64,000 nt of DNA from IMG/VR virus record IMGVR_UViG_2529292913_000008, one strand, 5' to 3'. The position numbers were made by a program, and so were the translations under genes. Numbering within the stretch: the first letter of the stretch is position 1; every line of letters starts with the position of its first letter. A model generated the notes under the pieces. It was not told the DNA's origin and ran no database searches. It saw only the letters and a program-made list of their open reading frames with translations. Shown one piece after another: positions 4,598 through 6,355 of this stretch. This DNA comes from a virus. Lineage: Duplodnaviria > Heunggongvirae > Uroviricota > Caudoviricetes.

Positions 4598-4960
4598 ATG
4601 GCTAAAATCGAGTACCATCGCGATCGCGGTAATTACCTGGAAATATACGATCATGAATCTCTTAACGATATCAACGATGCGTTATATGAATACTGTGAAA
4701 AAATGAGCATCACAGATGCACCTGACGCATTTGTCGAGCTACCGGTATATCTCCGCGACATCTATGCAATACGGACGCCGCCCGTATCGGTAATTCACAT
4801 TGGCTATGTCCGCCTGTCCATCGAAGAAGATGAAGATCGTTATATCGTACGCCACTATACATTGGACAGAAAAGAGCTTCCCAATGAATGGAACATGAGT
4901 AATTTCTACAACGGTGAATATGGCTTAAAACCCGCTATGAATGGCGCGGGCATTGCGTAA
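4598..4960 (+). CDS. hypothetical protein (120 aa), second gene of the IS10-disrupted pair
   Basis: ATG at 4598 abuts the original stop of the upstream gene (TGAATG); AGGGGA at 8 nt; 65 bp outside the IS10 outside end. Confidence 0.6.
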   Translation: MAKIEYHRDRGNYLEIYDHESLNDINDALYEYCEKMSITDAPDAFVELPVYLRDIYAIRTPPVSVIHIGYVRLSIEEDEDRYIVRHYTLDRKELPNEWNMSNFYNGEYGLKPAMNGAGIA

Positions 4961-4971
4961 TAGCCTAACAA

Positions 4972-5223
4972 CTATTCTGTTTTCTGATATGCCGGATCGT
5001 TCCCTTTTGGCAACTGGAGGCTTAACTGCCGGTAGTGCCGTAGACGTTCCATGAAATAGGTGCGCAGATTCTCTGGTTGCTCGCGGGCTACCTGTTCAGC
5101 TATGACAGGTATGTTCAATCGCTCTTTGTAGGCAACCCCCCTGGCAGCCAGGTCAACGTTAACTTTATTCCTTTCTTCCTGGCTTTTGGCTGCTATGTTC
5201 CATTCGTTCATATTAAATCCCAT
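4972..5223 (-). CDS. hot: homolog of DNA polymerase III theta subunit (Hot-like)
   Basis: 83 aa; [35 protein letters not shown] aligns with HolE ([35 protein letters not shown]). Confidence 0.8.
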
Positions 5224-5679
5224 CCAGAATAATTGAATAACGGCTATTATTTAGTCGCCGCAATATCTTCAAAGTTTTTTTCTCACCCCATTGCTTTTTG
5301 CGCACAGCTTATCTGGCTTGCGGTGCGCCGAAATGTAAATTCGCCTTCAGAGTTATCCACAAAGTTATGCACTTGCAACGAGGCCATTTTCCTCATACTG
5401 TGTTTGCACACACAGGAAATGGATATTTTATTAATTGAATTTTATTAAATAATAATGATAAGGAGAAAATTTGAGATGTAATCATGACATTAATAGATAG
5501 GGCCTGCATTACAGGCCCCAACTACATCAAGGAATTCACAGTTCCCTGATTTTTATACCGAAAACATGTGCCGTAAGTTCACGTTAACGACTTTCTTTCA
5601 CCGAATCCAACTATATAGAGGTTGGGTTTCTACGTCAACGTGAGAGCACACAGCTTTACATTTGACGAGGATTACCCTG

Positions 5680-5817
5680 ATGATTGTATTTTTTCAGTTT
5701 CTAAGTGCATTTTTAAATGCGCCTGTTCTTAGCCAAGTGCTGGCGATTGTCTTCATCGTGGTTCTGATATGGTTTTTCAAGTCAGTGATAAACAGAGGCG
5801 TGCGCTGGCTTATTTAA
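5680..5817 (+). CDS. small hydrophobic peptide (45 aa, one predicted TM helix, basic tail)
   Basis: ATG preceded by GAGGA at 8 nt; MIVFFQFLSAFLNAPVLSQVLAIVFIVVLIWFFKSVINRGVRWLI; below the ORF-track size cutoff. Confidence 0.35.
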   Translation: MIVFFQFLSAFLNAPVLSQVLAIVFIVVLIWFFKSVINRGVRWLI

Positions 5818-6000
5818 TGTCGCGCTGAGATATTAATTCCCTTGCTGTTTAACCATTTTTTGTGTGTGCTGGTGAGCGTGTGAAGGCTCAATTTGTTGCC
5901 CACCAGTATTTACTATTTCTAAGCTCCACAGTGTCACTTCCGCACAAACAACTTAGCGCGGAATCAGTATTCGGCCCAAGATGTAAAAAGCCAACCTGCG

Positions 6001-6225
6001 TTATGGTTCGCATTTCCAAATAGTGTTCTGAACGCCCGTGCCGGGCGCGAGATGTGGATTAGCGTTCGCGCTATGCTGATATACGGCTTTAGACTTTCCA
6101 TATTGCTGACAGGCTTTATCTGCGGTTTTTTGCAGGCTATCCAGCCCATACCAGCCATCAGACTGGATGCTTACCTTTTCACCGTCATTGTATTGCACCA
6201 TCGCGAACCCAAACATAGCTATCAT
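6001..6225 (-). CDS. hypothetical small protein (74 aa)
   Basis: ORF with hydrophobic N-terminus; weak ribosome-binding site; no family recognised. Confidence 0.25.
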   Translation of the reverse strand: MIAMFGFAMVQYNDGEKVSIQSDGWYGLDSLQKTADKACQQYGKSKAVYQHSANANPHLAPGTGVQNTIWKCEP

Positions 6226-6355
6226 CGCACCGACAATACCGCTTTTCCAAAAAGCTCTAATTAGGTCATTCGTTGCCTAATGTCCGAACTGCTAAAGCAT
6301 CAAAGTTGCTGTAGAATCACCGCCAATTACTTAAGCCTGAAATAAGTGGAAGAAA

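Follow-up and report, generated by a model that had tools for sequence, protein, structure and literature searches.

A conserved membrane-peptide gene and a candidate antisense RNA beside hot in the backbone of a P1-like phage-plasmid

Between hot, which encodes a homologue of the DNA polymerase III theta subunit, and hsdM of a type IC hsd cassette, a P1-like phage-plasmid carries a conserved block with a small membrane-peptide gene, here called ORF45 (ORF: open reading frame), and two predicted promoters that face each other. The DNA analysed is a stretch of 64,000 nucleotides (the window) from the virus record IMGVR_UViG_2529292913_000008. The interval studied is 4598-6355, and positions 4536-6400 are 100% identical to the E. 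coli plasmid NZ_CP122822.1. We tentatively read the block as a convergent-promoter, cis-antisense cassette with a type I toxin-antitoxin-like architecture, in which read-through would supply hot mRNA; this account may well be right, but we would not yet lean on it. Few phages have been studied as much as P1, and in E. coli and Salmonella P1-like phage-plasmids often carry resistance genes.

Judged by alignment, the interval is not an insertion scar but backbone of the P1 family, put together from three segments that differ in ancestry. From hot to about 5880 runs the conserved hot-ORF45 block, which holds the functional content. It is followed, at about 5880-6259, by a lineage-specific piece with a gene for 74 amino acids, and from about 6263 by the type IC hsd cassette, which covers 6.2 kb and stands in place of pmgT-pmgV-like genes.

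Five allelic lineages of the block were compared: this window, P1, P7, allele 3 (L063) and allele 4 (L067). The block extends from 4972 to about 5880 and is carried by about 4% of complete E. coli genomes. Its right end is an older boundary, at about 5875-5898, where the sequence common to all lineages stops (about 5875 for P1 and about 5898 for allele 3). Conservation inside the block is a mosaic: a noncoding core of 87 bp (5558-5644) is 87-97% identical across lineages and positions 5456-5548 are 73-88% identical, while the figures are 90-92% for the hot coding sequence, 75-86% for ORF45 and 11-60% for spacers and flanks. This mosaic indicates functional noncoding sequence. P7 has kept the module and lost hot. 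In allele 4, hot and the module are inherited together as a unit of 840 bp in a non-P1 context (L067, 2450-3291; 85% homologous), which favours the cassette. The neighbours there are VRR_NUC, TsiV and H-NS genes, with only hot and the module homologous, and the gene caller had merged the leader ORFs and ORF45 into one protein of 106 residues. A metagenome scan gave 19 contigs and no new lineage. A motif scan of GTDB species-representative genomes gave eight matches in unrelated taxa, about what chance would give for 18 fixed bases, and these were treated as noise. The region is part of the known variable region of P1-like plasmids.

ORF45 lies on the plus strand at 5680-5817 (ATG at 5680, TAA at 5815-5817) and encodes the peptide MIVFFQFLSAFLNAPVLSQVLAIVFIVVLIWFFKSVINRGVRWLI. 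An earlier note on this DNA, made from the letters alone, had picked out this ORF of 45 codons with a strong ribosome-binding site and a single transmembrane segment, and its description stands: GAGGA is found at 5667-5671, 8 nt before the ATG, and hydropathy (Kyte-Doolittle, 19-residue windows) peaks at 2.59 over residues 15-33. The peptide has a grand average of hydropathy of 1.72, with one predicted transmembrane helix followed by a basic C-terminal tail; in size (<60 residues) and hydrophobicity it is a membrane peptide of the kind found in type I toxin-antitoxin systems. Start and stop are the same in four lineages, and the frame is open in the fifth, allele 4, where a deletion of 20 nt alters the C-terminal tail only. 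No other ORF of at least 40 codons persists through the five lineages, and the ATG, Shine-Dalgarno (SD) sequence and stop of ORF45 are conserved. The ratio of nonsynonymous to synonymous substitution rates (dN/dS) is 0.28-0.45 in pairwise comparisons with dS up to 0.75, replacements are conservative (I/V/L/F and K/R), and 52 of 53 complete copies are intact. In P1 the gene is unannotated (NC_005856.1, complement(85992..86129)), and some records list it as a 'hypothetical protein'. Protein searches returned only four clusters among 5.8 billion proteins and only five representatives among 1.84 billion, all from these elements.

The earlier note had also described a perfect stem-loop of 7 bp, GGGCCTG-CATTA-CAGGCCC. 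The hairpin is real, but it lies at 5500-5518 and not at 5499-5517, and in a repeat search its arms extend to 13 nt (5494-5506 and 5512-5524). About 0.4 perfect 7-bp stems with loops of 3-8 nt are expected by chance per 1.1 kb, so the hairpin alone is not significant; likewise, ORFs of 25-70 codons are common in the interval and ORF45 by itself is not above chance. The two are above chance because they are conserved across five diverged lineages.

Three other reading choices were rejected: a TTG start for ORF45 at 5662, which is missing in P1 and P7; a leader ORF of 21 residues (5484-5549), which loses its ATG; and a leader ORF of 25 residues (5566-5643), which is frameshifted in allele 3. Downstream, at the right edge of the shared block, an imperfect stem (CTGGTGAGC/GCCCACCAG) with a T-rich run behind it at 5869-5906 on the plus strand is a candidate terminator and possible end of the ORF45 transcript.

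Upstream of ORF45 and on the same strand, two DnaA boxes, TTATCCACA (5353-5361) and TTATGCACT (5365-5373), are invariant in the five lineages. They are followed by a putative sigma-70 promoter at 5373-5401, with a -35 element TTGCAA (5373-5378), a spacer of 17 nt and a -10 element TACTGT (5396-5401), from which transcription would start at about 5408. The -35 is invariant and the -10 reads TAnTGT in all lineages. Two DnaA boxes that lie directly upstream of TTGCAA and overlap it, with a -10 placed 17 nt further on, make this by its sequence a promoter of the nrdA type. The DnaA-box region is 92.9% identical to the DNA upstream of nrdA/ypaB in 2667 E. coli chromosomes, and the entry M95666 annotates the site as 'dnaA box / nrdA-like promoter'. 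The near-identity to the E. coli nrdAB promoter runs over 42-85 bp, a stretch that takes in the two DnaA boxes and the -35, and the -10 aligns in register. However, the homology ends before the -10, the NrdR-box region of nrdAB has not been carried over, and the gene downstream is an ORF of 45 codons instead of ribonucleotide reductase. A palindrome, CTGTGT-N6-ACACAG (5398-5415), lies over the putative start and could be an operator; in P1 this place is taken by another palindrome, TTGTGA-N4-TCACAA.

Counted from about 5408, the ORF45 leader would be 270 nt long. Its first conserved element, at 5460-5500, consists of an SD sequence AAGGAG (5460-5465), a start-stop mini-ORF ATG-TAA (5476-5481) and an upstream ORF of nine codons that starts with TTG (5471-5500) and ends at the foot of the hairpin (5500). 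All five lineages have the SD and a start that is soon closed by a stop; the stop of the upstream ORF is found in four of the five, and the peptide sequence is not conserved. Further down, at 5624-5677, an invariant GGGUUUCU is predicted to pair with the SD region of ORF45 in all five alleles. In the full-length leader the SD is predicted to be unpaired with a probability of 0.31 and the AUG with one of 0.11-0.17, so that thermodynamic prediction in five alleles has the ribosome-binding site of ORF45 masked in the primary transcript. A long-range pairing of 5473-5485 with the ORF45 start, present in the minimum free energy (MFE) fold of the window sequence, was dropped since by inspection it is not kept in P1.

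On the opposite strand, the best promoter-like site of the interval in a consensus scan is a putative sigma-70 promoter TTGACG-17-TATAGT at 5610-5638, with 10 of 12 consensus matches and a putative start at about 5602. It corresponds to the predicted 'PupfN' of P1, its hexamers and spacing are invariant in the five lineages, and it lies within the 87-bp core. The RNA expected from it, a predicted structured antisense RNA or hot leader covering 5489-5602, has three stem-loops (5590-5558, 5550-5526 and 5525-5493). The last of these is the 13-bp stem-loop at 5494-5524 described above, and it is backed by compensatory changes: C-G to U-A in P1 and P7, and G-C to A-U in allele 3. A further change, U-A to U.G, leaves the stem paired on the minus strand only. 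In the five lineages the minus strand folds with an MFE of -32 to -43 kcal/mol (z -2.7 to -5.8), and the plus strand of the same positions with -23 to -28 kcal/mol (z -1.2 to -3.5); the minus strand folds 9-15 kcal/mol better in every lineage. The RNAalifold consensus is -39.2 kcal/mol for the minus strand versus -22.9 kcal/mol for the plus strand. In the minus-strand consensus fold 92.5% of the cells are paired and four pairs change on both sides, a count reached by none of 500 shuffles, with at most one in slid controls. For five sequences, this covariation is suggestive. YUNR loop motifs, checked by inspection, are not conserved in the loops. There is no intrinsic terminator at the hairpin, as the stem lacks a U-tract (plus-strand tail CAACTAC, minus-strand tail TATCTATTAAT) and a terminator scan did not flag it. 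A scan against Rfam (E up to 10) found nothing in 5224-6355, its sole real match being the RNA-OUT of an IS10 copy outside these positions.

Taken together as a cassette, these elements would work as follows. The nrdA-derived promoter with its DnaA boxes would start the ORF45 mRNA at about 5408; this mRNA would consist of the 270-nt leader, with the SD and mini-ORF ending at the hairpin and then the hairpin that masks the ribosome-binding site, followed by the frame for an inner-membrane peptide. The minus-strand promoter, at 5638-5610, would start an RNA at about 5602 that folds into three stem-loops, the last being the hairpin of the earlier note. The two convergent transcripts would overlap by about 200 nt, and the predicted minus-strand RNA is exactly complementary to about +90 to +195 of the ORF45 leader. 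It would keep ORF45 low, either through duplex formation and cleavage by RNase III or through transcriptional interference, and its read-through would provide hot mRNA in lysogens and in early infection. From these signals we infer transcription of both strands, the antisense effect, the control by DnaA and a membrane activity or toxicity of ORF45. The need for a further hot promoter has a background of its own: according to the summary of Chikova & Schaaper 2007 in PMC7556043, hot is expressed in lysogens and in early lytic growth. The annotated hot promoter is a late one only, so that hot needs an upstream sigma-70 promoter.

Several points weigh against the cassette. The literature yielded no data on expression, translation or toxicity, whichever strand is considered, and no paper describing the ORF45/antisense unit. 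ORF45 has no meaningful match in Pfam, NCBIfam, PHROGs or PADLOC, and no similarity to known type I toxins (Hok/Gef, Ldr, TisB, ShoB, Ibs, Fst and others), to Rfam families or to defence models. Purifying selection on it is only moderate, and natural copies are truncated by IS1 or by frameshifts, which makes ORF45 dispensable; CRISPR interference on upfN/upfO of P1, together with cited deletions, shows that lytic growth does not require the region. As the hairpin carries no U-tract on either strand, a discrete small RNA would have no defined 3' end. The covariation comes from very few events, since there are only five lineages and two of them are close, and the conservation of the core is not assignable to one function because the core holds both the minus-strand promoter and the plus-strand anti-SD.

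The overlap of the two transcripts could also be a coincidence. ORF45 would then be an innocuous small membrane protein expressed from a DnaA-responsive promoter of its own, the minus-strand promoter would serve only the lysogenic expression of hot, and the stem-loops would form a stabilising or regulatory 5' leader of hot, with no antisense regulation and no toxin. We consider this somewhat unlikely. It agrees with the need of hot for a promoter that is not late, with the joint inheritance of hot and the module, foreign context included, with the tolerated disruption of ORF45, and with a hairpin that has no terminator U-tract and so probably lets transcription through. But P7 retains the module without hot; conservation is higher in the leader than in the two coding regions; and if both promoters, 200 bp apart, are active, their fully complementary transcripts will interact. 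That ORF45 is not translated at all, and that a noncoding plus-strand transcript only interferes with the transcription of hot under the control of DnaA, appears improbable to us. The ribosome-binding site is indeed predicted to be largely paired and dN/dS is not very low, but frame, ATG, SD and hydrophobicity are all kept at dS up to 0.75 and across the 20-nt deletion. An element acting as DNA would be very improbable: here the DnaA boxes, an adjacent AT-rich stretch of 55 bp and the hairpin would titrate DnaA or serve as an auxiliary origin or as a signal for single-strand initiation. The boxes are invariant and AT-rich sequence (5418-5458) does adjoin them, yet the wholesale homology to the nrdA promoter already accounts for the boxes, no part is less conserved than the AT-rich stretch (42-59% identity and an indel of 19 nt), and the strand asymmetry caused by G.U pairs points to RNA and not to DNA.

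Two readings of the whole region find even less support from the comparison. In the GenBank annotation of P1 the region encodes three minus-strand proteins, UpfO, UpfN and UpfM, and UpfN has been carried from NC_005856 into some records. We give this scarcely any credence, as for each of the three the start, stop and length change between the five lineages (UpfN has 65 residues in P1 versus 14-17 elsewhere, UpfM 37 residues versus 17-25 or is absent) and none has a family match. The locus is that of upfM/upfN/upfO in the annotation of Lobocka et al. 2004 and its 'PupfN' is the minus-strand promoter used here, but the minus-strand ORFs are not conserved, and the ORF that is conserved lies on the other strand, where P1 has no annotation. 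The earlier note, for its part, had seen in the interval the seam where the hsd genes were integrated, with possible integration scars or small regulators. A junction is indeed present, and the cassette brings its own conserved leader of 93 bp (6263-6355), but the junction is confined to 6253-6263, about 95 bp before hsdM, and we attach next to no weight to this reading; for everything left of 6253 it is already refuted. Plasmids without hsd, such as NZ_CP036204, are 98.5% identical to the window over 4980-6259, and P1 is 82.5% identical over 4981-5874. The alignment that the earlier note had proposed is thus continuous left of the seam, an outcome it had named as speaking against its idea; the loss of ORF45 in relatives, the other such outcome, was not found, as ORF45 is conserved. 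ORF45 and the hairpin lie 450-750 bp inside backbone that is also found in P1, P7 and hsd-free relatives, with no hsd at this site in P1 and P7, which unties both from the hsd insertion. Other hsd loci adjoin phd with the same 93-bp leader and contain none of this region: those of the phages 673R5 and phi456 match the window only from about 6263. No scars were found either, as a repeat search detected no flanking repeats at the two hsd junctions; a four-way alignment and the match ranges place the left crossover in a short AAANCTCTA microhomology. Small regulators are still plausible for the hot-ORF45 unit, but not for hsd.

Returning to the convergent-promoter cassette, its closest likeness is hok/sok of R1. 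Both have, on a plasmid-type replicon, a gene for a small hydrophobic peptide that is preceded by a long structured leader; an oppositely directed promoter inside the leader for a structured complementary RNA, and a ribosome-binding site masked in the full-length mRNA, are predictions in our case. However, there is no similarity in sequence or in Pfam, the peptide gene is not overlapped by a mok-like frame, the antisense region is placed 78-190 nt ahead of the start codon, and the antisense RNA, for which no clear terminator is seen, may continue into hot. With tisB/istR-1 and zorO/orzO of E. coli the cassette would share a pairing site about 100 nt upstream of a structurally masked ribosome-binding site, and the conserved upstream SD with its start-stop could act as a standby site. 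The antitoxins of those systems are instead divergently encoded and only partly complementary, the control is by LexA and not through DnaA boxes, and the peptides are unrelated to ORF45. The stronger claim, that ORF45 and the minus-strand RNA are a new type I toxin-antitoxin or post-segregational killing family of P1-type phage-plasmids with a toxin promoter captured from nrdA, we regard as unlikely, though worth stating.

Around the block, the gap between hot and hsdM measures 1132 bp (5224-6355), in line with the approximately 1.1 kb of low coding density given in the earlier note, which had overlooked a second real gene in it. This is the gene for 74 amino acids on the minus strand at 6001-6225 (phrog_7757 over residues 1-74 of 74, E 3e-54), which has lost its upstream operon; in the hsd-free NZ_CP036204 it is the final gene of a minus-strand gene row. 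A plus-strand ORF of 70 residues (6052-6264) is probably spurious, because it has no family match and is antisense to the phrog_7757 gene. On the left, the interval does not begin with hot. It occupies 4972-5223 on the minus strand (Pfam PF06440, DNA_pol3_theta, 2.6e-32; 92% nucleotide identity to P1 hot), and 4598-4960 is a separate plus-strand gene of 120 residues (phrog_5797, E 9.5e-77 over 1-117 of 118). This gene is listed as hypothetical in NZ_CP122822.1 and CP057172.1 and lies between an lxr-like gene and hot; it is found in SJ46-like relatives and not in P1 itself, and its product has no assignment in Pfam, NCBIfam or PADLOC. The position homologous to the P1 late promoter LPhot, projected by alignment from the P1 annotation, is 5246-5269 on the minus strand; its -10 is identical and its -22 box agrees in six of nine positions, so that it is a late promoter by homology only. 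The lxr-like gene, intact in NZ_CP122822.1, is interrupted 62 bp before its stop by a complete IS10 of 1329 bp (3205-4533), with a target duplication of 9 bp, AGCCCAGCA, at 3196-3204 and 4534-4542; the RNA-OUT match lies at 4419-4488 (98.8 bits).

The hsd cassette begins its coding part with hsdM at 6356-7912 on the plus strand. Its product matches the M protein of EcoR124II (PDB 7bst) over the full length with 1142 bits, and the system is therefore of type IC (EcoR124-like). The gene order hsdM-hsdS-hsdR, three TAEL repeats and flanks of P1 DNA are also those of a type IC locus (EcoR124, EcoDXXI, EcoprrI). The repeats are in the central spacer of HsdS (7909-9177); this repeat sets the N6 or N7 spacing in specificities of the EcoR124I/II type. 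A candidate hsdM promoter, CTGCTA-17-TAGAAT at 6289-6317 on the plus strand, was read by eye within the 93-bp leader and is conserved in three junction contexts; the promoter consensus scan did not flag it. The right junction, at about 12490, coincides with the position of the P1 pmgT start codon. With the left junction at about 6253-6263, the cassette has thus replaced pmgT-pmgV-like genes, and the C1-controlled PpmgT/Op88 region has been retained and is now aimed, on the minus strand, into the 3' end of hsdR. Between this region and the 3' end of hsdR is a perfect hairpin of 11 bp (12431-12460). An unannotated hydrophobic ORF of 28 residues, MNTAFKIIMAAIYFWLFSIIFGGIVAHG, with an AGGAG ribosome-binding site lies at 12495-12581 on the minus strand, in the leader before the would-be start of pmgT; its conservation is uninformative because the DNA is 97% identical to P1.

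That hsd meets P1 DNA is known biology: type IC hsd loci are reportedly flanked by P1 DNA (Tyndall et al. 1997, Mol Microbiol 23:729), as the GenBank notes on P1 also indicate. Like those loci, the one in the window is an EcoR124-like hsdM-hsdS-hsdR set within P1 sequence, with its right junction at the pmgT start and Op88 region. The left junction is different, in that it follows the hot-ORF45 block and the phrog_7757 gene, while in EcoDXXI, 673R5 and phi456 it lies beside phd, and it thus varies the known embedding. As regards the hsd island, this only sharpens a known picture, in which type IC cassettes are exchanged into P1 backbones by way of flanking homology and can have different left junctions.

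For the backbone, if the cassette is real, the lysogenic expression of hot from a gene with only a late promoter would be explained; upfM, upfN and upfO would have been annotated on the wrong strand, where the real content is a membrane peptide and an antisense RNA; and a candidate RNA-controlled maintenance or stress module would be added to P1. If it were also a killing module, the expression of a membrane-damaging ORF45 peptide and, reciprocally, of Hot would be tied to the DnaA-ATP and replication-initiation state of the host, and P1-type phage-plasmids would have a second addiction or checkpoint device beside phd-doc.

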